Assembly: GCA_039588295.1 (NCBI GenBank)
Contig: JBDHAB010000004.1
Location: 96,001-160,000 of the forward strand
Direction of reading: 5' to 3'
Length of the DNA: 64,000 bases
Origin: Gemmatimonadota bacterium
GTDB lineage: Bacteria > Gemmatimonadota > Gemmatimonadetes > Gemmatimonadales > GWC2-71-9
Both the position numbers and the translations under genes were made by a program. The number at the start of each line of letters is the position of its first letter. The first letter of the stretch is position 1. Shown here piece after piece: positions 22,163-47,446 of the stretch. The notes beneath the pieces were generated by a model, which saw only the letters and a program-made list of their open reading frames with translations, was not told the origin of the DNA and made no database searches.

Positions 22163-22493
22163 GCACGAGGTGAGACACTCGACGACCTCGGCAGGATGAT
22201 GAGTGTTCCCGGCCGGTATTCGGGGCTCTCAACGTCCTCGCCGGTCTCGGCCCGGCGGGGCCACGTTCCACGGCAGCGGCGGTTTCGGGCCGTCCCGCTG
22301 TGCCGCTAGGCGGGGCCTGCGACCTGACCACCGTGGCCGATCTCGGCTCCAACGCCGGAGTCCTCGCTGCGTTATGGAATCATGTCGTTATCTTGGATGA
22401 CAATCCTGGCGCCGCGGCGGCGTGGTCGACGCTGAGCGGGCGTGAACCGGCGGTCTTGGCAGCACTCTTGAAGACCATGAGGGGAGGTCGTTG

Positions 22494-23771
22494 ATGGCCG
22501 GATGGCGGATGCCCCGTGTGCTCGCCGTCATGATGCTTGGGGCAGCGACGCACTCATGGTCCGGCCAGGCGCATGCGCAGGAGCCGCCGACTGACAACTG
22601 CCTGAGTTGTCACAGTGTGTTGGACGACGAGCGCCTCTCCGCGCCAGCCAAGGCGTTCCCGGCCGACATTCATGCGGTGCGGGGGCTCGGCTGCTCTGCC
22701 TGTCACGGCGGCGACCCGGCTGCCGGGTTCGATGGCATGGATCCGGCGAAGGGGTTCCTCGGGCGGCCGGGACGGCGCCGTTCGGTGGATCTCTGTGGTC
22801 GCTGTCACTCCGACGCCGCATTCATGCGCCAATACAATCCGTCGCTTCGCGTCGATCAGGTGGCCGAGTATGTCACGTCGGTCCACGGCCGCCGGCTCGT
22901 GGAGCTGGGCGACACAGCGGTCGCGGTGTGTACAAACTGTCACCCGGCACACGCCATCACGCCACCCACCGACCCCGCGTCGAGCGTGAATCCGCTCAAC
23001 GTGGCGAATACCTGCGGGACGTGCCACTCCCAGGCCGACTACATGCAACCCTATGGTCTGGCGACGGACCAACAAGAGAAGTATCTGCGCAGCGTGCACT
23101 GGGAGGCGATGTCCGTGCGGCGGGATCTGTCGGCCCCGACGTGCAACGACTGCCATGGCAACCACGGAGCGGCACCTCCAGGAATCTCGTGGGTCGGCAA
23201 TGTGTGCGGGCAGTGCCACTCGGTGATGGCGGACTATTTTGCTCAGAGCCGGCATGCCAGCACCTTCGCCATGCTAGGCGTTCCAGGCTGCGCGACCTGC
23301 CACAACAATCACGAGATCCAGTGGGCCGGCGATACGCTGTTGGGACTCGGTGAAGGAGCGGTATGCGGCCGCTGCCACGCCGCTGGTGACGGAGGTGGCG
23401 AGACGGCGCGCGCGATGCGTACGCTGGTAGATTCGCTCCGGACCGCGTTCGATAGTGCCCACGCAAAGCTGCTGAAGGCCGAGCGGGCCGGAATGGAAGT
23501 GAGTCAGCCCCTGTTCGAGCTGGGTGGAGCGAACAACGCGTTGATCACAGCGCGCGCGTCGGTCCACTCGTTCGAAGTGCTGAACGTGAAAGAGCCAGTC
23601 GATGAGGGGTTGGCGATCACGGCCACGGCGCAGAGTCGGGGTGAGGAAGCGCTGGGTGAATTGCGGTTTCGCCGGGCCGGATTGGTGATCTCGGTGACGA
23701 TCATCCTCGCGCTCATCCTGGGCCTGTTGCTCAAGATTCGCGATATCGAACGGGCGAAGTCTACGACCTGA
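22494..23771 (+). CDS. Nonaheme cytochrome c with C-terminal membrane anchor (set A)
   Basis: Signal peptide (AHA-Q), 9 CxxCH, helical stalk, C-terminal TM. Confidence 0.9.
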   Translation: MAGWRMPRVLAVMMLGAATHSWSGQAHAQEPPTDNCLSCHSVLDDERLSAPAKAFPADIHAVRGLGCSACHGGDPAAGFDGMDPAKGFLGRPGRRRSVDLCGRCHSDAAFMRQYNPSLRVDQVAEYVTSVHGRRLVELGDTAVAVCTNCHPAHAITPPTDPASSVNPLNVANTCGTCHSQADYMQPYGLATDQQEKYLRSVHWEAMSVRRDLSAPTCNDCHGNHGAAPPGISWVGNVCGQCHSVMADYFAQSRHASTFAMLGVPGCATCHNNHEIQWAGDTLLGLGEGAVCGRCHAAGDGGGETARAMRTLVDSLRTAFDSAHAKLLKAERAGMEVSQPLFELGGANNALITARASVHSFEVLNVKEPVDEGLAITATAQSRGEEALGELRFRRAGLVISVTIILALILGLLLKIRDIERAKSTT

Positions 23772-23788: not shown

Positions 23789-24271
23789 ATGGTTGAGAAC
23801 CGGCCGGCCCCGGAGACGTCGCGCAGGCGCTTCATCGACTGGCTCCTCAGCAGAACGCTCACGACATGGCTGCTGAGCACGAGCGTTGGAGGCCTCTTGC
23901 TCGCGATTCTGTACCCGGCAGGCCGGTATCTCGTGCCGCCGCAGGCCGTGGAGTCGACGTCCGCCTCAGTGACGGTGCCCTTCACGCCGGAAGACTTGGA
24001 GCCGAACACGGGAGAGATCTTCAGATTCGGCAGTCGCGCGGGAATCCTCGTGCGGACGCCGACGGGCGAGCTCCGTGCGTTCTCCGCCGCGTGCACCCAC
24101 TTGGGTTGTATTGTCCAATACCGCCCGGACGTCGGCCACATCTGGTGTGCGTGCCACAATGGTCACTTTGACCTCAACGGCCGCAACATCCAAGGCCCGC
24201 CTCCGGCGCCGTTGGAGACCTACGCCGTCAATGTTCGCGGCGATCAGATTGTCGTGAGCAAGGGGAGCTGA
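23789..24271 (+). CDS. Rieske [2Fe-2S] protein (set A)
   Basis: SRRRFI Tat motif, TM, CTHLGC and CACH boxes, GPPPAPL. Confidence 0.95.
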
Positions 24272-24275
24272 GAAG

Positions 24276-25373
24276 ATGGCGTGGTGGGCTGGGTGGATGG
24301 CGCGCGGTGCGACCTGGCTGGACCAGCGTGTGGGACTCGCCGGCGTCATGATGCTTGCGAAGAAGAAAGACGTCCCGGTTCACCGCCACACGATTTGGTA
24401 CTACCTGGGTGGCATGACGCTTTTCCTCTTCGTCGTGCAGATCACCACCGGGATGCTGCTGCTGTTCTACTACCGGCCCAGCGCCGAAGAGGCCTACGAG
24501 TCCGTCCAGTTCCTGATGGCGACGGTGCAGTTTGGATGGCTGGTGCGGTCCATTCATTCGTGGTCGGCGAACCTGATGATCCTCACGGCGTTTCTGCATC
24601 TGTTCAGCGTGCTGCTCATGAAGGCGTACCGGCCGCCGCGGGAGTTGACGTGGTTCTCAGGCATTGGACTCCTTGGGCTCTCCATGGCGTTCGGATTTAC
24701 CGGGTACCTGCTGCCGTGGAATGAACTCGCGTACTTCGCAACGCGAGTCGGGACCGAGATCGTCGGGGCCGTGCCGTTCGTGGGAGATTTCCTGCTCCGC
24801 GTCGCGCGTGGCGGTGATGATGTGACCGGCGCAACGCTCACGCGGTTCTACGCGTTTCACGTCGCGGTGCTGCCTGGAGTGGCCTTCCTGTTCCTTGGTC
24901 TGCACTTGTTCCTCGTGCAGAAACAGGGGATGAGTGTTCCACCCAGCATCGAGCGTGGCGGCGGTGCCAACCGCGTCATGCCGTTCTTCCCGGATTTCCT
25001 GCTGCGCGATCTCGTGGGTTGGCTCACGGCGCTCGCGGTGCTTGCTGCGCTCGCCGCATTCCTCCCGGCCGAGCTGGGCGACAAGGCGGATCCGTTTGCA
25101 CCGGCGCCGGCGGGGATCAAGCCTGAGTGGTATTTCATGTTCATGTTTCAGACGTTGAAATACCTCCCGGGTCACATTCTCGGCATCGAAGGTGAAATCG
25201 TGGGGATACTCGGCTTTGGATTGGCTGGAGCACTTCTCTTGCTGATCCCGATCCTCGATCGCCACACCGCGCGGGGGCAACCGAGCAAGCTGTTTACCTG
25301 GATTGGCGTTGGCGTCATCGCGTACATGATCGTGCTGACCTATCTCGGCTACACGGCGAGTCCCACACAGTAG
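24276..25373 (+). CDS. Cytochrome b of Rieske/cyt b complex (set A), intact Qo site
   Basis: Four heme His, [15 protein letters not shown] (25122-25133). Confidence 0.95.
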
Positions 25374-25549
25374 TCCTCAAGTGAGCTGAGTAACGGGGTG
25401 TGGAAGACCGTGTCACTGTCCCGCCGTGGGCCCGAAGTAAGTACAGAGTGAAGGTCTCTTCAGAAACGGCCGCCTCTATTGCCGAGGCATCGGGCCGATC
25501 GTAATGTGTAGTCGATTCGTTCCGATTTTATATGCCTCCGAGGGGGGGT

Positions 25550-27136
25550 ATGCCCATGAGACATCGATTCGTCGGACGGGCACTGCCTGTGATGGTGGTG
25601 CTGGGATTCCTGATCGCGGGTGCCTGCACGGAGGAGACGATCTCCTTCCGTACACCGTTCAACGCGCCGCCAGACGACGTCAACGGATTCCTTGGCTATT
25701 TCTCTGCCGAGGATCGTCAGACGACGTGCGGCAACTGTCACGCGGACACCCAGGTGGAGTGGCGGGAGACGCATCACGCGCATGCGTGGAGCACGCTGCA
25801 GGCCTCCGGTAGCGCGCAGTCGTTCTGCGAGCCGTGTCATACGATCAGTGAGAACGGGAACGCGGTTGAGGGTTCGGCCGGGTATCCCGCACTCGTGTCC
25901 GACCCAACTGCGCCACTGGACAGCGCCGTGATCGCGGTCTATCACGACGTGCAATGTGAGAACTGCCATGGTCCCGGCATCGACCATGTCACCAATCCGT
26001 CCGCGATGCAGCCGCTCGCCTCGATCGCGGTCGCCACCGACGCCACGAACGGCTGCGGCGAATGTCACTCGGGAACCCATCATCCCTTTGTCGAGCAGTG
26101 GGAGGCCTCCGCGCACGGTACGGGCGGCAGCTTCACATATGCCGGGGGTCGTGCCAGCTGCAACCAGTGCCACAGCGCTCAAGGGGCGCTCGTGGAGCAG
26201 TTCGGTGAGAACGCTCGCTTCCTGGAGAAGGATGGCGACCCGCTGCCGATCGTGTGCATCGTGTGCCACGATCCGCATTCCGCGACCTTCAGCGGCCAAC
26301 TGCGGGCCCCGCTCTCAGGGTTCATTACCAACAATCTCTGTATCAAATGCCACAACCGACGAACGGTTCCCGGGGCGGGATCGCGCGGTCCCCACGCCGC
26401 ACAGGGGCCGCTGGTTCTGGGCCAAACCGTCGCGTGGTGGCCTCCAGGGTTCGACTGGCTCGAGGGCCTCACGGCGAGTCACGGTGATACCGACGTGAAC
26501 CCGAGGCTCTGCGGCACGTGTCATGTGGAGATGTTCGAGATCACCGACGCGGCCACGGGCGACTTCGTGTTCCAGAGCGTCGGACACCTGTTCGAAGCCA
26601 TTCCATGCGTGGACGCCCAGGGGATTCCGGTCGGTGGCGACTGCAGCAATGATCAGCGTCGGTTCGATGCCTGTGCCGGGTGCCATGGCTCTGCAGGTGC
26701 CGCGCGAGCCACCTTCGAAAGCTTCCAGGCCGAGCTGGATCTCCTCCTTCAGCAGATCTGGACGGACAGCGACGGCAACGAGATTCTCGACCCAACGGAC
26801 GCGGGGCTGCTCCCCCAGATCGTGGCCGCCGCGGGCGGGAAGGAGCTGGACCGCTCCGATACGCTGTTCACCTTCGCAGAGGGCGTGCTCTACAACGCAC
26901 AGATCGCGGCAACGCACAACGAAGAACAGTTCTTCAGCGGCGACGTCATCGTCGCGCCGGACGACACGGTCCACTTCTCGGCCCACCACACGGCCGGCAA
27001 CGGGGTGCACAACCCCGCGTTCCTCGAGGCGCTGCTGAAGGCGTCGATTCAGGGAGCAGCCGACTTTTACGGGATCGTGCTCCCGGCCGATTTGGACCTC
27101 ACGCTGCCGCCGCTGGCCGAGGCGCGACGGCCGTAG
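25550..27136 (+). CDS. Nonaheme cytochrome c, probable lipoprotein
   Basis: LIAGAC lipobox-like, 9 CxxCH, C-terminal GVHNP. Confidence 0.85.
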   Translation: MPMRHRFVGRALPVMVVLGFLIAGACTEETISFRTPFNAPPDDVNGFLGYFSAEDRQTTCGNCHADTQVEWRETHHAHAWSTLQASGSAQSFCEPCHTISENGNAVEGSAGYPALVSDPTAPLDSAVIAVYHDVQCENCHGPGIDHVTNPSAMQPLASIAVATDATNGCGECHSGTHHPFVEQWEASAHGTGGSFTYAGGRASCNQCHSAQGALVEQFGENARFLEKDGDPLPIVCIVCHDPHSATFSGQLRAPLSGFITNNLCIKCHNRRTVPGAGSRGPHAAQGPLVLGQTVAWWPPGFDWLEGLTASHGDTDVNPRLCGTCHVEMFEITDAATGDFVFQSVGHLFEAIPCVDAQGIPVGGDCSNDQRRFDACAGCHGSAGAARATFESFQAELDLLLQQIWTDSDGNEILDPTDAGLLPQIVAAAGGKELDRSDTLFTFAEGVLYNAQIAATHNEEQFFSGDVIVAPDDTVHFSAHHTAGNGVHNPAFLEALLKASIQGAADFYGIVLPADLDLTLPPLAEARRP

Positions 27137-27197
27137 CGGCGAGGGAACGAGCCGCTGGCGAGACCCGTGCGCCGGCGGTTGCCCGAGTGGTGCCGTG

Positions 27198-27230
27198 CCG
27201 GCCCCGCCCTTTGCGAGGGGGCGGGGCCGG
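27198..27230 (+). terminator. GC-rich hairpin after lipoprotein cytochrome gene
   Basis: CCGGCCCCGCCC / GGGCGGGGCCGG 12-bp stem; weak U tract. Confidence 0.55.
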
Positions 27231-27308
27231 TTGCATAACAGGGCGTGGCATCACACTGTTCGGCCGTGGTTCGTCGAGTCAACGTCACCCAGTTCGAGCA
27301 GAGGGGTC

Positions 27309-27767
27309 ATGCAGGACACGAGTCAGGCGGAGCGGGAGAGCGGGGGAGTCGGCTTCAACGAGCTGCTCCTTGGCGCCGTCATCGTGCTGATGGTGGTGGG
27401 CATCGGGTTGGGCACGGCGCTCTACGTACTTCCGGGGGAGCATCTCGAGATTCCCGAGTTACAGCCTGCGGTTCGCGTCGTGCGGGAGGAGGATTTTCCG
27501 GTCGGGGCGAGCCGGCTCATTCGGTGGGGGGAGCGGGCCATTTTGGTGGTGCGACCCGCGCTCGATCGATACGTCGCGGTCGAAGGGACGTCGCCAAGCG
27601 ACGGATGTATTTTGCGGTGGGAAGAGGACGCGGTGAGGATCGTCTCGCCGTGCAGCTACGTCGTGTATGACTTGGATGGGAACGCCGTAGCGGGCCTGGC
27701 TACGGCTCCGCTCCAGGCATACTCCGTCTTCGTCCGGGACGGGATCGTCTACGTGGGAGGAGCGTAG
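27309..27767 (+). CDS. Rieske-fold protein lacking all Fe-S ligands (set B)
   Basis: Aligns with Rieske A; boxes read SPSDGC and SPCS; TM present, no twin-Arg. Confidence 0.85.
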   Translation: MQDTSQAERESGGVGFNELLLGAVIVLMVVGIGLGTALYVLPGEHLEIPELQPAVRVVREEDFPVGASRLIRWGERAILVVRPALDRYVAVEGTSPSDGCILRWEEDAVRIVSPCSYVVYDLDGNAVAGLATAPLQAYSVFVRDGIVYVGGA

Positions 27768-27771
27768 CGTC

Positions 27772-29085
27772 ATGCGTCGGACCCTGAACGCGGTGCACGG
27801 CTGGCTCGTCGGTGTGTGGGAGGACATCAAGGCGAGCACCGACTCCAGCCTGCTCGGCATGGCGCGGTTCGTCGGCTTGCTCTACGGTCCGATCGATCGG
27901 AGTCTGCGGATCGATCTGGCCCTCCGCAAATCGCTGCGCTACCGGCTGGCGCCTCAGGTCGGATGGCGTCATGCCCCTGGGGGCGTGACGTACCTCCTGT
28001 TCATCGTGTTGGTGGTGACCGGCGTCTTGATGGCGGCGTACTACCGCCCCTCTGTGGAAGAGGCCTACCCCAGTGTTCAGCACATCGTCTCGGAGGCGCG
28101 CTTTGGCTGGCTGGTTCGCGATCTCCATTACTGGTGTGCGAATCTCATCGTGATTGCGGTTCTCGCGCACATGGCGCGGGTCTTCTTCGAGGCGGCCTAC
28201 AAGCCGCCGCGAGAGACGAACTGGCTCATTGGGCTCCTGCTCCTGTTCGTAGTCTTGGCGTTCGGAGCTACGGGGTACCTCCTCCCCTGGGACCAGTGGT
28301 CGTACTGGACGGTCACGGAGGTTCTGAACGCCGTGGCCCACATCCCACTGGTCGGAAGACCAATCGCGGACGCGGCGATGGGAGACGTGATTCCGTCCGG
28401 TGCCACGCTCAGCCGCTTCTTTGCCCTCCACGTGATCGTGCTGCCCTGGATTGCATTCGCACTCTTGGGCTATCACTTCACGCTCGTTCGCCGCCGCGGC
28501 ATCGCCCCGGCGATGGACAGCGAGGACGAGGCGGCTCGGTGGCGCAGCAGTGGAAAGCACGAGCCGGGGGAGAAGCCGCAGGGCGTGCCGTTCTTTCCCA
28601 CCCACCTCCTGCGATCGTTCTCCGTTGCCGTCCTGACGCTTGCGGTCGCCATCACGCTTGCCGTGCTGTTCCCGCGGGTATTGGCCGACCCCGCCGATCC
28701 GTATGCGCTCCCGGACGAACTGGTGTCGACCTGGGTGCCGGTTGACGTGTCGCTCGCTCTCATCCGACTCGCAGGGCCGTGGGGCTTCGCCCTGTTCACG
28801 CTGCTCGGAGTGAGTCTGGTGTTGATCCCGTTGCTCGACCGAGGGCCGGAACGCCGACTCCGACGGCGTCCGATCGTCGCCACGTTGGGCCTCACCTTCT
28901 TCGTGGGGTATCTGGCGCTGTGGATCGCTGGGCGCGCGATCGGTTCGGTCCCGCCGTCTGCCTCGCTGGGTGAGGCTGTCGAGGAACGGGCGGTCCCGGT
29001 CGGCTCGTCGGCCCGCCCGCCTCAGGTGCAGCCGGCACGGCCGGCCGCTGCCCCGGAGAATGCGGACGAAGGAGGTGGACGGTGA
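27772..29085 (+). CDS. Cytochrome b paralog with degenerate Qo site (set B)
   Basis: Four heme His retained, TGYLLPW; PEWY position reads STWV. Confidence 0.9.
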   Translation: MRRTLNAVHGWLVGVWEDIKASTDSSLLGMARFVGLLYGPIDRSLRIDLALRKSLRYRLAPQVGWRHAPGGVTYLLFIVLVVTGVLMAAYYRPSVEEAYPSVQHIVSEARFGWLVRDLHYWCANLIVIAVLAHMARVFFEAAYKPPRETNWLIGLLLLFVVLAFGATGYLLPWDQWSYWTVTEVLNAVAHIPLVGRPIADAAMGDVIPSGATLSRFFALHVIVLPWIAFALLGYHFTLVRRRGIAPAMDSEDEAARWRSSGKHEPGEKPQGVPFFPTHLLRSFSVAVLTLAVAITLAVLFPRVLADPADPYALPDELVSTWVPVDVSLALIRLAGPWGFALFTLLGVSLVLIPLLDRGPERRLRRRPIVATLGLTFFVGYLALWIAGRAIGSVPPSASLGEAVEERAVPVGSSARPPQVQPARPAAAPENADEGGGR

Positions 29086-30320
29086 TCGGTGGCGGCGTGC
29101 TCCTGACACTCGTGGGCGTGGTGGCCGCGAGCGAAGGTGGAGGCATCACCGCCACCCGAGCAGCGCTGCCGCAGCGCTCGGTGAGCCAGGACAGCACGTA
29201 CGGGTGTATCGTGTGTCACGCCGATAAGCGGCGCGCCTTCTCGCAGGGCGTGCACGCTGAGCGGGGTATTCGGTGCGAAGACTGTCACGGCGGCGACCCC
29301 TCGCAGTATGAGACACCCGCGGCACATCGGGGACGGTTCGTCGGCTCGCCGACCAAACGGGAGACGGTCGAGCTCTGCGCATCGTGTCACTCCGATCCCA
29401 ACCAAATGCGTCAGTACGGTCTCTCGGTCGACCAGCTCGCCGAGTTTCGCACGAGCCGGCACGGACAGCTGTTGATGGAGCAGCGCAACCGGGACGCGCC
29501 GACCTGCACGGACTGTCACCACGCGCATTTGATTCGGCCTGCGAGCGATGCGCGGAGCGAGATCTATCCCTCCAACATCCCAGGCACCTGCGCGGTGTGT
29601 CATGAGAACGCTTCGTTGATGGCCAAGTACGGGATGCCAACGGACCAGCTGGAGCGCTTCACCGTCGGCGCGCACGGCGTCGCGGTGTTCGAGAAACGCA
29701 ACTTCGCGGCGCCCACATGCATCGGGTGTCATGGCTCCCATGCCGCGCTTCCCCCGGCCGTCGCGGAGATCACCCACGTGTGCGGTAAGTGTCACGTCCT
29801 GCTCGCGCGAGCGTTCTATGAGGGGCCGCACGGGGAACCGGCGCAAGCCGGTGGACTCTCCGGGTGCGTGGGGTGTCACAGCAACCACGGGACGGAACGC
29901 ATCCCCCCGGAGCAGATTGGGGAGCTCTGCACGACTTGCCACGACGCGGAGAGCCGCATGGCCGCGGTGGGCTTCGAGATCGAGGAACAGGTGGGCCGGG
30001 CAGGCGAGGAGCTTGCCGCTGCCGCCGTGGCAATCGACGAGATGGCAGCGAACGGACGGGAAACGGCGGATGACCGGTTCCGCTATCAGGCGGCGTTCAC
30101 GGCCTATCAGCAGCTGGCCAAGGTGCAACACTCGCTCGACCTCGAGCAACTCGAGGAGCTCGGGCGAGAGGTGCGCTCGAACACGGGGATCATTCGCGCG
30201 ACGGCGGAGGCGTACGCGGAGGAACGGTGGGAGCACAAGCTCGTGCTGATCCCTGTCTGGTTCCTCGCGCTTTCGGCACTCGTGTTTGCCTGGTTCAAAC
30301 TTCGAGAGCTAGGACGGTAG
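29082..30320 (+). CDS. Nonaheme cytochrome c with C-terminal anchor (set B), paralog of 22494-23771
   Basis: 9 CxxCH with similar spacing (CHGGDP, CHSD...MRQY, APTC..CHG). Confidence 0.9.
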   Translation: MIGGGVLLTLVGVVAASEGGGITATRAALPQRSVSQDSTYGCIVCHADKRRAFSQGVHAERGIRCEDCHGGDPSQYETPAAHRGRFVGSPTKRETVELCASCHSDPNQMRQYGLSVDQLAEFRTSRHGQLLMEQRNRDAPTCTDCHHAHLIRPASDARSEIYPSNIPGTCAVCHENASLMAKYGMPTDQLERFTVGAHGVAVFEKRNFAAPTCIGCHGSHAALPPAVAEITHVCGKCHVLLARAFYEGPHGEPAQAGGLSGCVGCHSNHGTERIPPEQIGELCTTCHDAESRMAAVGFEIEEQVGRAGEELAAAAVAIDEMAANGRETADDRFRYQAAFTAYQQLAKVQHSLDLEQLEELGREVRSNTGIIRATAEAYAEERWEHKLVLIPVWFLALSALVFAWFKLRELGR

Positions 30321-30322
30321 CG

Positions 30323-32344
30323 GTGGCTGAGCAACGTTGGCGCCTGCGGAAGCTGTCGCGGCCCCTCAAGCTGGCGGTGCAGATCGGCGTTCTCGCGATC
30401 ATCCTCGCGACGATTGGCGCGGTGGGGTTCATCGAGTACTCGGGCCAACCGAGTTTCTGTCGCAAGTGTCATGTCATGGAGCCGTACTACCAGTCCTGGG
30501 CGACATCGACGCACAACGACGTGAAGTGCATCGAATGCCACTATGCGCCGGGACTGCGTGCGGAGGCCATGGGCAAGTTCCAGGCGGCGAACCAGGTAGT
30601 GAAGTACGTCACCGGGGCATACGGAACGAAGCCCTGGGCAGAGATCGAGGACGCGGCGTGCTTGCGCTCTGGCTGCCACTCGTTGCGCAAGGTGGAAGGA
30701 GTCGTCAGCTACAGCCCGGGTCAGCACAGCAATGTCATCGTTCGGTTCGATCATACGCAACATCTGGGTGAGCTCCGGCGCGGCAAGCAACTCCGCTGCA
30801 CGAGCTGCCACTCGCAGATCGTCCAGGGCAACCACTTGGCGGTCACGCCGCAGACGTGCAACCTCTGTCACTTCAAGAAACGCGTGACCGCCGATCCGGT
30901 TGCGGACTGCGTCGCGTGCCATCGATCGCCGCCCAGGATCGTGTCGCCGGCCGGGTTCGTGGTCGATCATCCGCAGTACGTCCGTGATCTCGTGTCGTGC
31001 AGCTCCTGTCACCAGGAAGTGGTGAGTGGCACCGGTGAGGCACCGGACTCGCGATGCTATACCTGTCACAACGAACCCGACCGCCTCGCGGAGTTCGACA
31101 ACACCGAACTCCTGCACCGGGTTCACATTGCCGAACACAACGTCGAGTGCGCCCAGTGCCACACGCCGATCGAGCACCGCACGGTCTCGCTCAGCGTCAC
31201 GGCGGAGCTCGACTGTGCGTCGTGTCATCGGAGCGTTCACGAAGCACAGCAGCGCCTGTACGCCGGCATCGGCGGTCACGGCACCGAAACCACGCCGAGC
31301 TCGATGTTCCTGGCGCGTGTGTCCTGCGAGGGCTGTCATGAGCTGCGCAAGGAGATTCGCGGGCACGAGCAGGTGAACCTGGCCGGTGAGGCATCGTGCC
31401 TCTCGTGTCACGGCATCCAGTACGCCAACATTTTGCCGTCCTGGCAGCAGGAGATGGATCGCAAGGTCCGGGCGGCGGGTTCGGCGGTTCGTGGAGCGCG
31501 GCGAGCGGCGGGGTCAGGTCCGTCGAGCACGCGCGCTCGGGTCGACAGCTTGCTCGGTCTCGCAGAGGACAACGTCGAGTTCGTGCGGCTCGGTAAGGGC
31601 GCGCACAATATCGCCTACGCCGACCGGTTGCTCCGGGCCAGCCTCGATCTGGCGCGCGAAGCGGTGCGCACCGGGCCGTTGTCGTACCGCGTCCCCAGCG
31701 TCGACCTGGGTCCCGAAATCGGTGAGAATGTCTGCTTACAGTGCCATTTGGGAGTCGAGCGGCGGACCGTGACGTTCCAGGGTACGAAGTTCAACCACGA
31801 GCGTCACGCGGTCGACGCAGGTCTGCCGTGCACCAGCTGTCACACGGGCCTCGATGACCATGGGAAGAACCTGCTCTCGAGCACCGCAGACTGCGTCGGC
31901 TGTCATCATCGAGAGGTGAGTCCAGAGACCTGCGCGCATTGCCACGCGGGTCCGGGAGGCGCGCCCGAACGCGTGGTGAGCCATCCCGTGGGGGACTTCC
32001 CGCACGACCGGCACACGTCGGCGGGGCTCCCGTGTGCCGCGTGCCACCGGCCCCCCGCAATGAGTGCGAGAGAGCTGGACTGTTCGACCTGCCACGGCCT
32101 GCACCATCAGCCCGAGGCGAATTGTCTCTCGTGCCACCGTGAGGGCGCCAAGGGGAGACACGACATCGCGTTTGCCCATCTCCAGTGCAGCCAGTGTCAT
32201 GGCGACAAGGCGGCCGGCCTCACCAAGTGGAGTCGGCAGATCTGCACGGTGTGCCACGTCGACCGCGTGGAGCACAACGCGCCAGTCGCCTGTGAGCTGT
32301 GCCACGAAATCGCGCCCATCGGGTCCGGGGGGTCCGACGGGTAG
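30323..32344 (+). CDS. Very large multiheme cytochrome with NapC/NirT-like N-terminus
   Basis: N-terminal TM, PSFCRKCHVM...W.TSTH..VKCIECH; 21 CxxCH plus CLRSGCH. Confidence 0.9.
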   Translation: MAEQRWRLRKLSRPLKLAVQIGVLAIILATIGAVGFIEYSGQPSFCRKCHVMEPYYQSWATSTHNDVKCIECHYAPGLRAEAMGKFQAANQVVKYVTGAYGTKPWAEIEDAACLRSGCHSLRKVEGVVSYSPGQHSNVIVRFDHTQHLGELRRGKQLRCTSCHSQIVQGNHLAVTPQTCNLCHFKKRVTADPVADCVACHRSPPRIVSPAGFVVDHPQYVRDLVSCSSCHQEVVSGTGEAPDSRCYTCHNEPDRLAEFDNTELLHRVHIAEHNVECAQCHTPIEHRTVSLSVTAELDCASCHRSVHEAQQRLYAGIGGHGTETTPSSMFLARVSCEGCHELRKEIRGHEQVNLAGEASCLSCHGIQYANILPSWQQEMDRKVRAAGSAVRGARRAAGSGPSSTRARVDSLLGLAEDNVEFVRLGKGAHNIAYADRLLRASLDLAREAVRTGPLSYRVPSVDLGPEIGENVCLQCHLGVERRTVTFQGTKFNHERHAVDAGLPCTSCHTGLDDHGKNLLSSTADCVGCHHREVSPETCAHCHAGPGGAPERVVSHPVGDFPHDRHTSAGLPCAACHRPPAMSARELDCSTCHGLHHQPEANCLSCHREGAKGRHDIAFAHLQCSQCHGDKAAGLTKWSRQICTVCHVDRVEHNAPVACELCHEIAPIGSGGSDG

Positions 32345-32674: not shown

Positions 32675-32756
32675 CTTGTGTTGGGGGTGGGCGTGGCGGG
32701 GTCAGCGACCTCTTCCGGGCGCCACCCGGTCACGACACAGACGCAAGGAGCGACCG

Positions 32757-33428
32757 ATGGCAGTGCTACTTGGCATTCTCACGATCGCGGCGCTGATCGG
32801 CATCGACGTGCTCTTCCTGCGCGCTCGGCGAGCGCGCCGCGCCGAGGCAGTGGCGCCGCCGCGGCTTCCCCCGCTGTCAGAGTCCATCACCCGTCTGCCG
32901 CAGGGGGTTTTTCTGCACCCTACGTTCACGTGGAGCCGCGTCAGGGAGGACGGAGACGTCGTGCTTGGCATCCACCCGCTCCTGTTCGGACTCGTGGGTG
33001 CACCGTACCAGATCGACGTGCTGTCCGAGGGGCAGGAGGTGGAGCGCGGCGGCGAGTTGGTGAAGCTCGGCCGCAGCGGACGCCGCCTCACGGTCCGCTC
33101 GCCGGTTTCCGGTCGGATTTCGGCGGTCAACGATGTGTTGACGGGCGAAGCCGAGTGGGACGGAGTGGAGGCGGACGACGGCAGGTGGGTCTACCGCATC
33201 ACGCCGCAGGGTCTCGGGGAGGAGGTCCCCTCGTGGTTCGTTGCCGAGCGCGCGAGTGAATGGAGCCGGCGGCAGTACGAACGGTTCAAGGAATACCTGT
33301 TCGGGGTGCTGCACGCGGGAGAGCTCGGGCTCACCATGACCGACGGTGGTGATGTGCCGAACGGGATTCTCGGGCGCCTCGCGGGCTCTGCGTGGGACGG
33401 GATTCAGCAGGAGTTCCTGGATCCATAG
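32757..33428 (+). CDS. Membrane-anchored GcvH-like protein 1 (no lipoyl Lys)
   Basis: N-terminal TM; HPTFTW, RSPVSGRISAVN; LGLTMTDGG. Confidence 0.75.
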   Translation: MAVLLGILTIAALIGIDVLFLRARRARRAEAVAPPRLPPLSESITRLPQGVFLHPTFTWSRVREDGDVVLGIHPLLFGLVGAPYQIDVLSEGQEVERGGELVKLGRSGRRLTVRSPVSGRISAVNDVLTGEAEWDGVEADDGRWVYRITPQGLGEEVPSWFVAERASEWSRRQYERFKEYLFGVLHAGELGLTMTDGGDVPNGILGRLAGSAWDGIQQEFLDP

Positions 33429-35661: not shown

Positions 35662-36357
35662 ATGCAAGGCGCAACAGGTGACATCTTCGCGACGAAGGGT
35701 CTCGAGTACCTCATCGTCATCGGGTATTTGCTCCTGCTCATGGGCGTGTGGCGCCTTCTGAGTCCGCCCAAGCTCGCGAGAGTGCGTGGGATGAAGCCGC
35801 AACCAAAGGCGGTTGCTCCACCCCAATGGTTCGCACTCCCGAGCGGCGTGTTCTATCACCAAGGGCATGGATGGGCTGCGCCGACCGATGGCGACACCGT
35901 TCGCGTCGGGATGGACGACTTCGCGCAGCGCTTGGTGGGGAAGCCGGACGCGATTGTCTTGCCCCACGTCGGCGAGCGGCTCGAGCAAGGCGTCGAGGGG
36001 TGGGCGCTCCAGTTCGGCACCGAGAGGATCCCAATGGTGTCGCCGGTGAGCGGGGAAGTCGTGTCGGTGAACCCCGCGCTGGCGCAGTCGGTGGACGCGG
36101 TGAACGCTGATCCGTACGGGCGCGGCTGGTTGTGTGAGGTCAGCGTGTCGAGCCCACGAGCAGCCTTCAAGAACTTGTTGAGTGGCGAGCTCGCGCGCTC
36201 CTGGATGCGCCAGGTCGTCGAACGGCTGCGCCAGATGCCCACGGCGTCCTTGGGTGTCGTCATGCCGGACGGCGGCGTGCCCGTGTCCGGATTTGCACGG
36301 GTCATCGCGCCGGACGATTGGACGAACATGGCTCGGGACCTGCTGCTCAGCAGCTGA
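35662..36357 (+). CDS. Membrane-anchored GcvH-like protein 2 (no lipoyl Lys)
   Basis: YHQGHGW, VRVGMDDFAQ, SPVSGEVVSVN, DPYGRGWL; LGVVMPDGG. Confidence 0.85.
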   Translation: MQGATGDIFATKGLEYLIVIGYLLLLMGVWRLLSPPKLARVRGMKPQPKAVAPPQWFALPSGVFYHQGHGWAAPTDGDTVRVGMDDFAQRLVGKPDAIVLPHVGERLEQGVEGWALQFGTERIPMVSPVSGEVVSVNPALAQSVDAVNADPYGRGWLCEVSVSSPRAAFKNLLSGELARSWMRQVVERLRQMPTASLGVVMPDGGVPVSGFARVIAPDDWTNMARDLLLSS

Positions 36358-36400
36358 CCGGGACGCGACGGGAACCGCGGTCGCGAGAAGGGAGGCCACA

Positions 36401-37189
36401 GTGTACGGCTCGGAAGAGCTTCCCTGTATCTGGGTGCTGGCCGGCGTGTTGAGCTACCGCGCGTGCGACCGGAACTACGATTGCGAGCACTGCGAGTTGT
36501 ACCACGCGCTCCGGGGGAGGACGGTTCCGGACGCTGAGCGGATGGTGCTCGGGGCCCGAGCCAAGCGAGCGGGGGAAGACACGACGGGGGTCGCGGACGA
36601 CGTGGTCAACGCGTATGTCTGCTACCTGACGGCTGGGTGCACGCTCCACTTCGACCGGCCGTACAGCCCCGGCCATTTTTGGCTCGAGGGCACCAACGGT
36701 CTGGTTACCGTCGGCCTCGATGATCACGTGCTCCGTGTGTTGTACCCCGTGGAGGAAACCGTTCCCCCCAAGGTCGGCATGTGTCTCAAGCGCGGGGAGC
36801 CGTGTGGCTGGGTCGTGCGTCGTCGCTCGACGATTCCGCTCACCATGCCGGTCTCCGGCGAAGTACAGGAGGTCAACGGCCGCTTCGTGACTACGGTGCG
36901 GGACACCCACCGCGGCGGGAACGACGAGCCGTGGTTCTTCCGAGTGGAGCTGCACGAAGACATCGACGCGGTGCCCGGTCTCTATCGCGGTGAACAGGCA
37001 CTGCAGTGGTACCTGCACAAGATCCAGGTGCTCAAGCGGCACCTACGTGATGCGGTCGCGCCCGAAGAGCAGTGCCATCTTGGCGCGATGATGGCGGACG
37101 GCGGGACACCCAGCCTCGATCTCGAGGCCATCCTCGGTTCCGAAGGCTTCGAGGCTCTGGTCGACGAGATCTTCCGAGTGCACATTTAG
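36401..37189 (+). CDS. GcvH-like protein 3 with N-terminal CX12CX5CX2C
   Basis: GGAGG RBS plus GTG; CIWVLAG...CDRNYDCEHC; GHFW, VGLDD, MPVSGEVQEVN; LGAMMADGG. Confidence 0.8.
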   Translation: MYGSEELPCIWVLAGVLSYRACDRNYDCEHCELYHALRGRTVPDAERMVLGARAKRAGEDTTGVADDVVNAYVCYLTAGCTLHFDRPYSPGHFWLEGTNGLVTVGLDDHVLRVLYPVEETVPPKVGMCLKRGEPCGWVVRRRSTIPLTMPVSGEVQEVNGRFVTTVRDTHRGGNDEPWFFRVELHEDIDAVPGLYRGEQALQWYLHKIQVLKRHLRDAVAPEEQCHLGAMMADGGTPSLDLEAILGSEGFEALVDEIFRVHI

Positions 37190-42906: not shown

Positions 42907-43056
42907 CGCCGCACCCGGAAGATATCCACGCAGGGAGCCGGGACTTCGAATTCAGTGTGAGAATCCCTTTAGTCTGTTTAGTAGCAGGCACTTGGCTACT
43001 ACATTGTGGTTGGGATCGTGGACCGTACCTGTCGTTCCACCGTGACTGGGGGAGGT

Positions 43057-45885
43057 GTGGGCAATGAGGTGTGCCGAGGCGTGCGGGCAAACCCGCTAGT
43101 TCCTATCGCCTTTCTCGCGGTGGGGCTGCTCGCGAGCGCCGCTCCCGCCGTCGCGCAGGACGAAGAACCCTGCCTGATGTGTCATGGGAACGGGCAAATG
43201 TTCGCCGGTTCCGCGGACAGCGCACGGCTGCACGTCTCCGTGCGCCAGCTGGAGCGCTCCGTGCACGGTGCCGCCGGCTTGGCGTGCGGGATGTGTCACC
43301 AGGGAATGGATTTCCCGCACCCCGAGGAACGGCGCCAGGTAGACTGCGGGCTGTGTCACAGTCAGGAGGCGACGCAGCACCACGAGTCGCTCCACGGTCG
43401 GGCCGCCGAACGGGGAGATCCGCTGGCACCGAGCTGCGTTGATTGTCACGGAACCCACAACGTCAAGTCACATACAGACCCGACATCACCGACCCGGGTG
43501 GTGAACATCCCGTTCCTCTGCGGCGAGTGCCATCACGAGGGCACGCGGGTCTCTCGCACCCGTAACATCCCGCAAGATCGAATTCTCGAGAACTACTCCC
43601 TGTCGATTCACGGGGAGGGTCTGCTGCGACAGGGCCTCACGGTCACGGCGGTGTGCACGTCCTGCCATACGTCCCATCAGATCCTGCCGCACACGGACCC
43701 GCGGTCGAGCATTCATCCCAACAATGTTGCGGCCACCTGCACGCAGTGCCACGGGCTGATCGAGCAAGTACACCTGCAGGTGATCGAAGGCCGCCTCTGG
43801 GAAGAGGGACCCCACCAGATCCCGGCGTGCGTCGACTGCCACTCACCGCACAGGATCCGGCGGGTGTTCTACAGTGCCGGAGCGGCGAACGAGAATTGCC
43901 TCGGGTGCCATCGCGACGAGAGCCTGAGCGGTGTGGTCCGTGGCGATACCGTATCGCTGTACGTGGACGAGGCGGCATACGAGGCCTCGACCCACGGAGA
44001 GACGCCGTGCTCGCAGTGCCATTCGGAAGTGAACCCGGCGTTGTCGCGGGCATGTGCGGCGATTCGCTCGCCGGTGGACTGCAGCGTCTGCCATCCGGGC
44101 CCGGTGGAAGAGTACGGGTTGGGGATGCACGGCCGGCTCGCCGCCAACGGCGATCCTGATGCGCCGGTGTGTCTGGATTGCCATGACAAACATGCGACCG
44201 AGAGTCGCCTGACGCCAACGTCGCCCACGTTCCCGCGCAATGTGCCGGACCTCTGCGCCCAATGTCATCGCCACGGAGGGCAGGCCGCGATTCGGATCGT
44301 TTCGGACCTTCCCGAGCCCGTGGAGAGCTACGAGATGAGCATCCATGGGAAAGGGCTGATGCAGAGCGGGCTCGTGGTGACGGCGACGTGTTCCAGCTGC
44401 CACTCCCCGCATCGCGAACTCCCCGCCAGCGACGAAAACTCGACCGTCCATCGGGACAACCTCGCCGACACCTGCGGGCGGTGCCATCACGGAATCGAGG
44501 AGACCTTCCAGACCAGTATCCACTGGCCGGGGGTTGGGGATGGCGGAGACGCGGAACACGAACTGCCAACCTGCGAAGACTGCCACACCTCACACACGAT
44601 CAGGCGCGTGGACCGGTCGGACTTCCGTCTCACGATGATGAGCCAATGCGGCCGCTGCCACGAGAATGAGGCGGAGACATTCTTTGACACGTTCCACGGG
44701 AAGGTGTCTCGCCTGGGTGATGCGGCCGCGGCGAAGTGCTACGACTGTCACGGTACCCACAACATCCTCCCCGTGTCCAACGCCGCCTCGACCCTCAGTC
44801 GTCGTCACGTGGTCGAAACCTGCTCGCAGTGTCACCAAGGCGTGAACCTGAGATTCACCGGCTATCTGACGCACGCCACGCACCACGATCCCGACAAGTA
44901 CCCCTTCTTGTTTTGGACGTTTTGGGGGATGACGGCGTTGTTGGTTGGAACGCTGAGTTTTGCCACGCTCCACACGCTGGCGTGGCTCTGGCGTGGCATA
45001 GCGACGATGCCATTGTGGCACGGGTGGGCAGGGAGCAGTACGGGCGAGCACGCAGTCGGTGGCAAGATGTACCAACGGTTCACGCAGTTCCAGCGCACGC
45101 TGCACCTGGTGATGCTGCTGAGCTTCTTCACATTGGCGCTCACGGGGATGGTGCTCAAGTTCTCCCACATGGGATGGGCGCAGACATTCGCCGCGCTCGT
45201 CGGCGGCTTCGCCACCACCGGCGCCCTGCACCGGCTCGGAGCGGTCACGCTGATCGGGATTTTCCTGATCCATCTCTGGGATGTCCGGAAGCAGAAGCGG
45301 TGCTTGGGACTCTCGTGGTGGGAGTACATCACGGCCAAGGACTCCCTGATTTTCAACCGCAACGACGCGCGCGAGTTCTGGCAATCTGTCAAGTGGTTCC
45401 TCGGGAAGGGCCCGCGACCCAGGTACGGGCGCTACACCTACTGGGAGAAGTTCGACTACTTCGCCGTGTTCTGGGGCATGTTCATCATCGGGTCCACCGG
45501 GCTCGTGCTGTGGTTCCCCGAATGGTTCACGAAGGTCATTCCTGGGCAGTCGGTGAACATCGCGACGATTCTCCACAGTGACGAGGCGTTGCTCGCGGTG
45601 GCGTTCATCTTCACAGTCCACTTCTTCAACACGCACTTCCGTCCCGACAAGTTCCCCATGGATCCGGTCATCTTCACGGGACGGGTGACGGTCGAAGAGT
45701 TCAAGCGCGATAAGCCGGCAGAGTACGAGGACCTGGTAGAGCGCGGCAAGTTGGAAGAGCACATGGTCGATCCCTATCCGGAGCGGTGGGCGCGCGTGGC
45801 AACGATCTTCGGCATGACGGCGCTCGTGATCGGCGTCACGCTCATCGTGTTGATCGTGTACTCGATGCTGTTCGGCTACCGCTGA
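43057..45885 (+). CDS. CbcL-like fusion: 19-heme cytochrome c plus FdnI-type cytochrome b
   Basis: Signal peptide, 19 CxxCH, then QRTLH, ALHR, WEKFDYFAVFWG, HSDEALLA...HFFNTH; start about 43057-43081. Confidence 0.9.
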   Translation: MGNEVCRGVRANPLVPIAFLAVGLLASAAPAVAQDEEPCLMCHGNGQMFAGSADSARLHVSVRQLERSVHGAAGLACGMCHQGMDFPHPEERRQVDCGLCHSQEATQHHESLHGRAAERGDPLAPSCVDCHGTHNVKSHTDPTSPTRVVNIPFLCGECHHEGTRVSRTRNIPQDRILENYSLSIHGEGLLRQGLTVTAVCTSCHTSHQILPHTDPRSSIHPNNVAATCTQCHGLIEQVHLQVIEGRLWEEGPHQIPACVDCHSPHRIRRVFYSAGAANENCLGCHRDESLSGVVRGDTVSLYVDEAAYEASTHGETPCSQCHSEVNPALSRACAAIRSPVDCSVCHPGPVEEYGLGMHGRLAANGDPDAPVCLDCHDKHATESRLTPTSPTFPRNVPDLCAQCHRHGGQAAIRIVSDLPEPVESYEMSIHGKGLMQSGLVVTATCSSCHSPHRELPASDENSTVHRDNLADTCGRCHHGIEETFQTSIHWPGVGDGGDAEHELPTCEDCHTSHTIRRVDRSDFRLTMMSQCGRCHENEAETFFDTFHGKVSRLGDAAAAKCYDCHGTHNILPVSNAASTLSRRHVVETCSQCHQGVNLRFTGYLTHATHHDPDKYPFLFWTFWGMTALLVGTLSFATLHTLAWLWRGIATMPLWHGWAGSSTGEHAVGGKMYQRFTQFQRTLHLVMLLSFFTLALTGMVLKFSHMGWAQTFAALVGGFATTGALHRLGAVTLIGIFLIHLWDVRKQKRCLGLSWWEYITAKDSLIFNRNDAREFWQSVKWFLGKGPRPRYGRYTYWEKFDYFAVFWGMFIIGSTGLVLWFPEWFTKVIPGQSVNIATILHSDEALLAVAFIFTVHFFNTHFRPDKFPMDPVIFTGRVTVEEFKRDKPAEYEDLVERGKLEEHMVDPYPERWARVATIFGMTALVIGVTLIVLIVYSMLFGYR

Positions 45886-46042
45886 CCTCCCGAGTCCTGG
45901 CCCCGCAGCGGCTGTGACGGCGGGTTAGTAAGCGATTCTTTAAGAGAACCTTAAGAAAGCCGATAGAACGGCTGGGAATCTGGACGCATTCGACAGGGAA
46001 CCATACCTTAGGCTCGCTACCGTGCAACGGGGGGAGGGGCGT

Positions 46043-47446
46043 ATGGAACCGATGCTCTACCGCTCGATAGTCGCTGTCTGGGGGGTGGTCGCGCTGGCGC
46101 CGCCGCTTCACGCGCAGGGCTATCACGTTCGGCTGGACAACCGCTTCCAGTCCGTCGCGTACCAGACGCTCACGGGCGAGGAACTCAAGGCTGCGCCATT
46201 TGCGAGCACGCTGGACGCTTCCGCCTGGGGGTTCGGCATTCCCGGGCTCAAGCTCCACACCCGCGCACGGCTGACCACCGACTTCCACGACCCGGATGTG
46301 TGGCCCAGTGTCGAGCCCGTGCTGCAGCTGCTCGAGGGGTATGCCGAATACTCACGGCCCTTGTTCACGGTCCAGGCGGGCCGAACGCACGTGTTCTCGC
46401 GGCTGGGGTTCACGGGGCTGGACGGAGCGAAGCTGGATGTGCGTTTGCTCCAGGGACGTCTGCGTGCGTCCGCCTACGGCGGTTGGGGTCTCGCGCGCGC
46501 CGTCCCGTTCCCGCTGACGAGTGAAGAGGTCAATCCCCTCGGAGACTTCATCCCCCAGGATCGGCAAATCGTCGCGGGAGGCAGTCTCGGCTGGTCGCTG
46601 CCGTACGTCGAGGGCCGCATCCTGTACCAACGCGAGATCGATCGACGCGGTGACCAGGAGTGGGCGCTGTTCTCCGAGCGTGGGGCGATTGACGCCGTGA
46701 TCCGACCCATGGACCGGCTCACGCTCGCCGGCGGCGCCGAGTACGACATCGCCCGCGAGGAGCTGGGCAGAGCCGACGCGCGCGTGACCTACAACCAGCC
46801 AATGGGTCGCCTGCAGGTCTCGCTGGGCGGACGCCGCTATCGTCCGTTCTTCGAGCTCTACTCGATATGGGGCGTCTTCAGTCCCACGCCGTACACGGCA
46901 GGTTTCGCATCGGTGCGCGGGACCCCGATCTCCGGCCTCGAGGTGTGGACTCGTGGCGAGGTGTTCGACTACGACGACACCGGGGTCGCGTCGCCGATCG
47001 CGACGGTTGAAGACGATGGCTGGCGCTGGGCGGTTGGGGCCGTCGTGACGCGGGTGCCGCAGTGGGTGTTCAACGCCACGTATCACGTGGAGCCCGCGCC
47101 CGGTGCGTCGTCGCTGGGGTTTGACGCGAGCGCGATGTTCATGGCGCTGGACAACGTCACGATTCGAGCACGTGGCGGGTACCTCAAGCGACCCCTCGAG
47201 TATCGGATCAACGATGCGAAGGTGTGGACCTACGGCTTGCGTGCCGACGTCCGGCCGGTCCCCGGCATTTCGCTCAACGCCGAGGTGCTGCGCTACGATG
47301 AAACCCGGCAGGGTCTGAGCGCAACCGAAGTGGCGTTTGATCAGTTCCGGATTCACCTTAGTGCAACGCTCACGTTCGGGTCGGGAGCGGACAGGCCTGG
47401 TCTCCACCCCTCGATTCTCCGCATGCCGGAACGGAGGCCGCAATGA
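46043..47446 (+). CDS. Putative outer-membrane beta-barrel (porin of a porin-cytochrome complex)
   Basis: Signal peptide (LHA-Q), Gly/Tyr/Trp-rich amphipathic strands, no Cys; coupled (ATGA overlap) to multiheme gene. Confidence 0.65.
   Translation: MEPMLYRSIVAVWGVVALAPPLHAQGYHVRLDNRFQSVAYQTLTGEELKAAPFASTLDASAWGFGIPGLKLHTRARLTTDFHDPDVWPSVEPVLQLLEGYAEYSRPLFTVQAGRTHVFSRLGFTGLDGAKLDVRLLQGRLRASAYGGWGLARAVPFPLTSEEVNPLGDFIPQDRQIVAGGSLGWSLPYVEGRILYQREIDRRGDQEWALFSERGAIDAVIRPMDRLTLAGGAEYDIAREELGRADARVTYNQPMGRLQVSLGGRRYRPFFELYSIWGVFSPTPYTAGFASVRGTPISGLEVWTRGEVFDYDDTGVASPIATVEDDGWRWAVGAVVTRVPQWVFNATYHVEPAPGASSLGFDASAMFMALDNVTIRARGGYLKRPLEYRINDAKVWTYGLRADVRPVPGISLNAEVLRYDETRQGLSATEVAFDQFRIHLSATLTFGSGADRPGLHPSILRMPERRPQ

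Follow-up and report, generated by a model that had tools for sequence, protein, structure and literature searches.

A Rieske fold that carries no cluster is known from NirD (PF13806; 2jo6, 4aiv, 3c0d), a soluble protein that partners NirB and serves as a structural subunit of NADH nitrite reductase. Rieske proteins have been described as Tat substrates with uncleaved anchors (PMC13673990). With regard to cytochromes b, six major Qo motifs have been listed (PEWY, PDWY, APWY, PDWF and PPWF, together with GPWF), all of which have an aromatic residue at the fourth position, and APWY has been linked to reverse electron flow (PMC4122944). Further reported types include an SxWF variant in subfamily L and a clade G' cytochrome b encoded in large operons of unknown function (PMC5600118).

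The closest described cluster to the one presented here is ExtKLMNOPQS of Geobacter (GSU2930-2937), which comprises the Rieske protein ExtO, the cytochrome b ExtP, ExtQ and multihaem cytochromes (PMC2825233, PMC5877670). As far as these descriptions go, both systems have a Rieske/cytochrome b core that is wired to multihaem cytochromes replacing cytochrome c1. ExtO is presented there as an Fe-S protein with no mention of ligand loss, the comparison with our Rieske protein being one by description only. ExtP is the best NCBIfam match of our cytochrome b, below the cut-off (212 of 290 bits); ExtP and ExtQ are split, whereas the cytochrome b described below is fused, and the ExtQ model was over its cut-off in none of the 301 genomes surveyed. 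A protomer with both haems and a disabled Qo site is available from engineered asymmetric bc1 dimers (B-B, and BS-B with G158W, a substitution that inactivates Qo; PMC4330944), in which the Rieske cluster is retained.

The window analysed here, a stretch of 64,000 nucleotides from a Gemmatimonadota bacterium, carries an operon of two paralogous triplets, MHC1-Rieske A-cytochrome b A (module A) and Rieske B-cytochrome b B-MHC2 (module B). The Q cycle is defined by two elements, the Rieske cluster and the PEWY site; module B, which is widespread and under selection, discards both while keeping both b haems, the scaffold of the Rieske protein and 30 haems of the c type. Unlike in the engineered dimers, the loss is natural and fixed, and the Rieske ligands are part of it. 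In the literature covered, which included PMC7908018, PMC12954380 and PMC5317091, we found no account of a Rieske protein without ligands combined with a PEWY-less cytochrome b.

Organisation and conservation of the operon

The features of the two modules are given in Table 1. In a GTDB scan, Rieske B was found at 59 loci in 58 genomes, 58 of these loci being titled Gemmatimonadota or one of its sub-taxa and one 'uncultured bacterium'. As the scan pattern contained the ligand-less box II, ligand-bearing relatives could not be found in this way, and the ligand counts reported below rest on protein, profile and genome searches instead. Cytochrome b B comes directly after Rieske B in 59/59 loci; among the loci with enough sequence, MHC2 comes after cytochrome b B in 51/51 and the 21-haem cytochrome after MHC2 in 46/47. 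The nine-haem cytochrome directly precedes Rieske B in 36 of 52 loci and is accessory, not core, to module B. A complex prediction for cytochrome b B, MHC2 and Rieske B scored 0.66, against 0.56 for a control in which the cytochrome b was replaced, a difference that speaks neither for nor against such a complex. The gap that separates the upstream cytochrome gene from Rieske B contains a GC-rich inverted repeat (gccggccccgccc ... gggcggggccggt) at 27160-27235; a scan of 25300-27400 found no promoter or terminator, and the repeat was not scored as a terminator.

Table 1. Coordinates of the genes and motifs of modules A and B in the window
Feature	Position	Strand	Remarks
MHC1, module A nonahaem cytochrome	22491..23771	+	32% identical paralogue of MHC2
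Rieske A	23789..24271	+	160 aa; intact CxH/CxxH ligands, GPPP loop, Tat motif
Cytochrome b A	24276..25373	+	four His; PEWY in 17/17 copies; N-side Asp kept
Nine-haem cytochrome	25532..27136	+	probable lipoprotein, judging from the N-terminus
Rieske B	27309..27767	+	152 aa; TM helix 16-40, then ligand-less Rieske-fold domain
Box I remnant, S95-P-S97-D98-G-C100	27591..27608	+	from sequence and alignment of 120
Box II remnant, S113-P-C115-S116	27645..27656	+	from sequence and alignment of 120
Cytochrome b B	27772..29085	+	long (fused) cytochrome b; conserved N-terminal extension
STWV (S319-T-W-V322), PEWY position	28726..28737	+	aligned to 8smr_I PVWY and 6kls_B PEWY
MHC2, nonahaem cytochrome c	29082..30320	+	C-terminal anchor; 9 CxxCH in 49/49 aligned copies
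NapC/NirT-type N-terminus and multihaem cytochrome	30227..32344	+	21 CxxCH; true start probably after the ORF start

A Rieske fold without cluster ligands

An earlier note on this DNA, made from the letters, had described Rieske B as a Rieske-fold protein in which serine replaces all four Fe-S ligands, with unchanged 18-residue box spacing. The translation and codon read-out agree exactly with this description: the positions that are ligands in the boxes of Rieske A (C102-T-H104-L-G-C107 and C120-A-C122-H123) are occupied in Rieske B by S95 (TCG), S97 (AGC), S113 (TCG) and S116 (AGC). A BLASTP alignment of the two proteins (32% identity over 93 aa, E 1e-12) places their boxes in register. Rieske A matches PF00355 above the cut-off, and in the same Pfam scan Rieske B did not match this family and matched only PF13806, at 23.6 bits and below the cut-off of 27. 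The additional argument that each serine codon is at least two base changes away from a ligand codon adds little, because orthologues vary in their serine codon, with TCC, TCT and TCA besides TCG at positions 95 and 113, and TGC to TCC is a single change.

Among the 421 candidates of the protein search, 129 homologue clusters reached E<=0.001, and the best 120 of these, query included, were aligned (48-76% identity). No homologue has Cys at position 95 or 113 (0/120 each) or His at position 116 (0/120), and His at position 97 is present in 4/120. Position 95 is occupied by S79/A36/G4/D1, position 97 is variable (S49, N16, R14 and I11, besides the four His) and position 116 has S76/T27; S113, found in 120/120, is the sole invariant one among the four ligand positions. 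All four serines occur together in 21/120 homologues, so that the replacement claimed by the note is true of Rieske B itself and not of its family, and the idea that four serines are required was rejected. The family trait is the loss of the ligands. The disulfide pair, by comparison, is kept as claimed (C100 in 119/120, C115 in 120/120), and the boxes retain D98 in 117/120 and P96 in 113/120. The Pro loop has become G-L-T/S/A, with G129 in 120/120, L130 in 114/120 and T, S or A at position 131.

The canonical ligand motif was present in none of the 60 locus copies of Rieske B. In an index-free profile search of 1.84 billion representatives, ligand-less members occupy the top, their full-length or C-terminal matches scoring 120-245 bits. 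Canonical Rieske proteins appear only from 95 bits down, and a few low-scoring rows have partial ligand changes. The ligand-less Rieske proteins are a discrete clade, separated by a score gap from the canonical ones. No longer or fused form was scored among 4396 candidates, which hints weakly at the absence of such forms.

The absence of a twin-arginine motif, which the note had also pointed out, extends to the homologues. Before the helix, RRxF occurs in 0/120 and any RR in 7/120, none of them in Rieske B, whereas Rieske A carries SRRRFI and its copies have RR in 20/20 and RRxF in 17/20. The net charge flanking the helix of Rieske B is -1.5 before and -1.8 after it, which is ambiguous for the topology.

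An AlphaFold2 model of Rieske B built from the 120-sequence alignment (mean pLDDT 86.4) consists of a helix at residues 16-40 and an all-beta domain. Its best Foldseek match is 8hn2_A, the Rieske domain of Chlorobaculum (rmsd 1.5 Å), and VIA-align superposes both with Z 16.6 and rmsd 1.6 Å over 101 residues, compared with Z 12.4-13.9 for NirD-type structures. The expectation of a Rieske-like fold is borne out by this prediction. With the Chlorobaculum tepidum protein, which is of the PetC/QcrA type, Rieske B shares the fold, the single N-terminal helix, the box spacing, the disulfide Cys pair and a gene position directly before cytochrome b; it differs from it in lacking the Cys/His ligands, the Pro loop and the Tat motif, and in having a partner without PEWY. 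Rieske B differs from NirD, for its part, in the membrane anchor, the respiratory-type disulfide and the cytochrome b neighbour. The tip of the domain is better conserved than its remainder (0.82 vs 0.70).

Rieske B is under purifying selection, with a median dN/dS (NG86) of 0.21 over 76 pairs that are not independent of each other (range 0.04-0.74) and values of 0.06-0.23 in the eight closest pairs. The ratio is somewhat above that of Rieske A (0.14 over 11 pairs), which is what could be said for Rieske B being a decaying paralogue or pseudogene. Nevertheless, 31/31 genome matches have no internal stop and the alignment of 120 sequences contains 9 invariant and 32 near-invariant columns; decay is refuted by these conservation data, and its probability is practically nil. 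The proposal of a selected, cofactor-free structural subunit holds at the sequence level, given the fold, the ligand loss, the dN/dS and the missing RRxF: judging from its residues, Rieske B cannot bind a normal His2Cys2 cluster, and it may well be free of any metal and located in the periplasm.

An altered partner cytochrome b

The alteration extends beyond the Rieske gene, as the Qo motif of the partner cytochrome b is lost as well. Residue counts were made over 120 clusters of cytochrome b B, all of which retain the four haem ligands H119, H133, H220 and H235 (120/120). At the position of the Qo motif, STWV was found in 74 clusters, SSWV in 19, STWA, SSWI and STWI in 8 each and singletons in 3, with a PEWY-type motif in 0/120. 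One divergent subclade from metagenomes has lost even the Trp, its motif having decayed to P-A-L-G (L122). T180 stands at the Gly of YWG, which lines the Qo pocket, in 115/120 (register from 8smr and 6kls), and we take this column to be that of G158 in bc1. The cd1 and ef segments have newly conserved polar residues, E183 (116/120), D325 (116/120) and R/K302 (120/120), together with W321 (120/120). STWV differs from PEWY at three of four positions and does not appear in the list of six major Qo motifs given in PMC4122944. Since natural Qo motifs vary, as the SxWF variant illustrates, loss of the motif alone proves no dead site.

On the N-side, R240 (120/120) takes the place of a His located five residues past the last haem ligand, S282 stands at the Asp of KD (S/A/T/M/L in 116/120) and the Cys of haem ci was looked for and is absent, its column being A/M/V in 120/120. 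Cytochrome b B has neither the bc1-type His/Asp nor the b6f-type CxGG haem ci site, and H/Q67 and H/Q278 are newly conserved (120/120 each). The predicted structure folds as a long cytochrome b. It shares the overall fold with 8smr, 6kls and cytochrome b6 plus subunit IV (TM about 0.62-0.65), the four haem His and the LPWxQ segment with bc1-type cytochrome b and b6 plus subunit IV, and the Arg after the last haem His with cytochrome b6. It differs from these proteins in having STWV instead of PEWY/PVWY, Thr instead of the pocket Gly and Ser instead of the N-side Asp, in lacking the haem-ci Cys and in carrying an extra N-terminal extension. Both cytochromes b of the operon retain an aromatic residue three positions ahead of the bL His in helix D. 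By the features tested, module B works neither as a Rieske electron carrier nor as a Q-cycle cytochrome b, and the Rieske B and cytochrome b B genes are both under purifying selection.

The N-terminal extension of cytochrome b B comprises about 55 residues (27772-27945, +), with R32, G35, Y38, G39 and I41 invariant, and is unlike that of cytochrome b A.

Distribution across Gemmatimonadota

The genome survey covered 301 Gemmatimonadota genomes that are at least 90% complete; one genome (G203) enters only the genome tallies, and weak Rieske B matches in G056 and G059 were set aside as intact proteins. Orthologues of Rieske B and cytochrome b B are found in an identical set of 31/301 genomes with none discordant, and the two losses thereby mark the same genomes. 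Cytochrome b A orthologues occur in 38 genomes, 23 with and 15 without module B, which means that module A is present in 23/31 B genomes, often adjacent, vs 15/270 others, kin not being independent in this comparison. Cytochrome b A was also found in 29 of the 50 locus genomes searched whole, and in the remaining 8 of the 58 it is visible at the locus. The A gene is interrupted by a stop or split in G066 and G342.

The 8/31 B genomes without cytochrome b A weaken the view of module B as an obligate partner of module A. Five of these eight have an intact Rieske protein and a PEWY cytochrome b-cytochrome c fusion, one has a PDWY-type cytochrome b and two are without another cytochrome b. The single PF00033/PF00032 match of G237 (4 contigs, 96% complete), as of G315 (20 contigs, 93%), is cytochrome b B. 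A cytochrome b other than B was found in 29/31 B genomes vs 89/270 others (five candidates scored per genome; kin non-independent), and those of the B genomes belong to at least three subfamilies, namely A, the PEWY type fused to cytochrome c and the PDWY type.

Several single observations concern these other complexes. In genomes without module A (L060, L065, L066, L067/L115 and L114), a 16-haem cytochrome, a Rieske protein and a PEWY cytochrome b/c fusion are encoded about 10 kb downstream of module B. At L061/L062, a pyridine-nucleotide oxidoreductase instead occupies the slot after the downstream multihaem gene. Cytochromes b with APWY occur at L063 9397-10902 (G005, a module B genome) and at L134 2527-3366 (G065). 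A second Rieske A-like gene, 57% identical and with an intact motif, is present at G000:C53:9137-9553 (L070), with no cytochrome b in the surrounding 12 kb. The same genome has a cytochrome b-like gene with a PEWF motif, a Rieske gene and an 8-haem cytochrome on G000:C72 (L069), as well as a further, divergent (28-31%) cytochrome b-like gene at G000:C7:6774-7610.

Origin of the module

Two genomes of a distant family of the phylum (G059/G056) encode a Rieske protein, a cytochrome b and 9-haem and 20-haem cytochromes in the gene order of module B. Their Rieske proteins have intact ligands and RRxF, and the cytochrome b of G059 has PEWY. Among the regions fetched, these Rieske proteins are the best non-B matches of the Rieske B profile, at 79 and 72 bits vs 34-51 for A types, and the MHC2 profile gives 354-361 for G059/G056 vs 213-274; the N-terminal extension of cytochrome b B is weakly shared with the G059/G056 module. 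Rieske A, the paralogue named in the earlier note, reaches 45 bits with the Rieske B profile vs 72-79 for the G059/G056 proteins. By these comparisons, the closest intact relative of module B is the collinear G059/G056 module and not Rieske A, which appears to be a more distant paralogue.

Module B forms one clade (SH-aLRT 99 and 100) apart from A in both the Rieske and the cytochrome b tree, the latter a quick one, and a recent duplication of Rieske A was rejected on account of these separate clades. A sister position of the G059/G056 module to the B clade is not settled by the trees, in which this join was flagged as long-branch. Ligands, Tat signal and Qo motif may have been lost in a single coupled event from a G059-like ancestor.

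In G056, the reading frame of the cytochrome b (L121 8789-9541) stops after helix D, and the stretch up to the nonahaem gene showed no subunit IV; this cytochrome b is either split, broken or mis-assembled.

Possible functions of module B

We favour, with somewhat more than even confidence, a reading of module B as a stand-alone bc-derived complex without bifurcation at the Qo site, in which the Rieske fold would act as a structural plug. Such a module probably links the membrane to the multihaem cytochromes without a textbook Q cycle. It would be a membrane complex of its own, made up of Rieske B and cytochrome b B together with the nonahaem MHC2 and the NapC-type cytochrome with 21 haems. 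Rieske B would be exported unfolded, without Tat, its disulfide would close in the periplasm, and its re-sculpted tip (D98, S113, G129-L130) would be fixed in the former Qo docking crater, where it could serve as both plug and scaffold by holding the dimer and positioning the nonahaem cytochrome. Electron flow would be linear, connecting the periplasmic multihaem chain with the bL-bH pair, and the direction that we favour, with about even chances, is from the multihaem chain through bL and bH to quinone. The quinone would be bound at a remodelled N-side site formed by the new His/Gln 67 and 278 and by Arg240, a site that is hypothetical because cytochrome b B does not have the canonical N-side residues (S/A/T for the Asp; Arg for the His in 120/120). 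The complex would be a redox-loop quinone reductase that supplies quinol to a pool on which intact bc complexes, module A among them, would draw; this would explain why intact complexes often accompany module B. We know of no direct path from bL to haem c in a bc-type cytochrome b.

Independence from module A speaks for a stand-alone complex, as each module occurs without the other (8/31 B genomes without A, 15 genomes with A and without B), and so do G237 and G315, incomplete assemblies in which no other cytochrome b was seen; against it, 29/31 B genomes do carry another cytochrome b and 23/31 have module A. The frequent presence of A beside B would also be explained if module B were the Qo-silent half of a natural asymmetric heterodimer, in which an intact protomer, A or another, bifurcates and B, with a dummy Rieske protein, adds a second bL-bH branch via a bL-bL bridge. 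We consider this unlikely, albeit with some weight. In its favour are that the whole triplet is duplicated in the operon (MHC1/MHC2 32% and cytochromes b A/B 40-42% identical), that module A is commoner in B genomes than in others, kin not being independent, that the aromatic residue before the bL His is kept in both cytochromes b, and that engineered asymmetric dimers with one Qo site are reported to work (PMC4330944). However, 15 genomes have A without B, and the 12 regions fetched from them contain no further cytochrome b; B would need partners from at least three subfamilies of 33-40% identity, and G237 and G315 show no partner at all. Furthermore, the 9-haem and 21-haem cytochromes of module B itself are kept (MHC2 dN/dS 0.13) and would have no FeS donor in a heterodimer.

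A stand-alone complex might also have preserved bifurcation in a remodelled form, with quinol at an altered Qo site, a c haem of MHC2 or a metal held by C100/C115/D98/S113 as first acceptor, and the newly conserved acids E183, D325 and D98 of Rieske B as proton acceptors. The conservation of these acids and of R/K302 and W321 is consistent with such a site, as is the retention of both b haems and of nine c haems, but both the Glu and the aromatic residue of the Qo motif are lost, Thr replaces the pocket Gly and the divergent subclade has lost even the Trp; moreover, Rieske B has no Tat signal for export with a cofactor loaded, and C100/C115 sit at the canonical disulfide positions. This makes remodelled bifurcation improbable, and only a slim chance is left to its haem-only form, a bc complex that would oxidise quinol at the rebuilt Qo and conserve energy, with a c haem of MHC2 on the Rieske scaffold as first acceptor and E183/D325/D98 as proton acceptors; if true, it would mean quinone-based bifurcation without an iron-sulfur cluster or a moving head domain. 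The replacement of the canonical residues of both quinone sites would fit a quinone-free wire as well, in which cytochrome b B is a two-haem transmembrane link from the periplasmic chain to a cytoplasmic partner docked on the N-terminal extension, and Rieske B is a scaffold, possibly of inverted topology. The invariant residues of the extension and the ambiguous charges flanking the Rieske B helix agree with this, whereas the 17 window proteins tested include no cytoplasmic redox partner with a conserved place next to the module, the intact G059 module has a weakly similar extension and the conserved Cys pair suits a periplasmic disulfide; we hold a quinone-free wire to be very improbable.

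Module B is a natural experiment on how a bc complex functions without bifurcation. Whether a Q-cycle enzyme became a linear link between quinone and multihaem cytochromes or one half of an asymmetric dimer, either outcome bears on why bc complexes are dimers, and as the intact versions (module A, G059) share their architecture with the degenerate one, a direct comparison is testable. Database labels for the Rieske B family read 'Rieske (2Fe-2S) protein' or, in some cases, NirD-like; because pipelines annotate it in this way, metabolic models credit Gemmatimonadota with a complex III that they may lack.

Surroundings of the module

The island around module B encodes FeS/NrfD pairs, an 11-haem cytochrome, a 19-haem-b561 fusion and a probable beta-barrel, and fits a periplasmic or extracellular electron network. 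A protein of about 470 aa at 45944-47446 (+) has no Pfam hit, and its nearest named Atlas clusters are beta-barrel porins. It sits between the 19-haem cytochrome-b561-type fusion (42985-45882) and 12- and 4-haem cytochromes, with which it could possibly form a porin-cytochrome conduit. Additionally, three GcvH-like proteins (32676-33428, 35662-36357 and 36182-37189, all +) are found on either side of a 4Fe-4S/NrfD pair, ahead of a histidine kinase, and several related loci (L001, L009 and L013) retain this GcvH-like/NrfD block.
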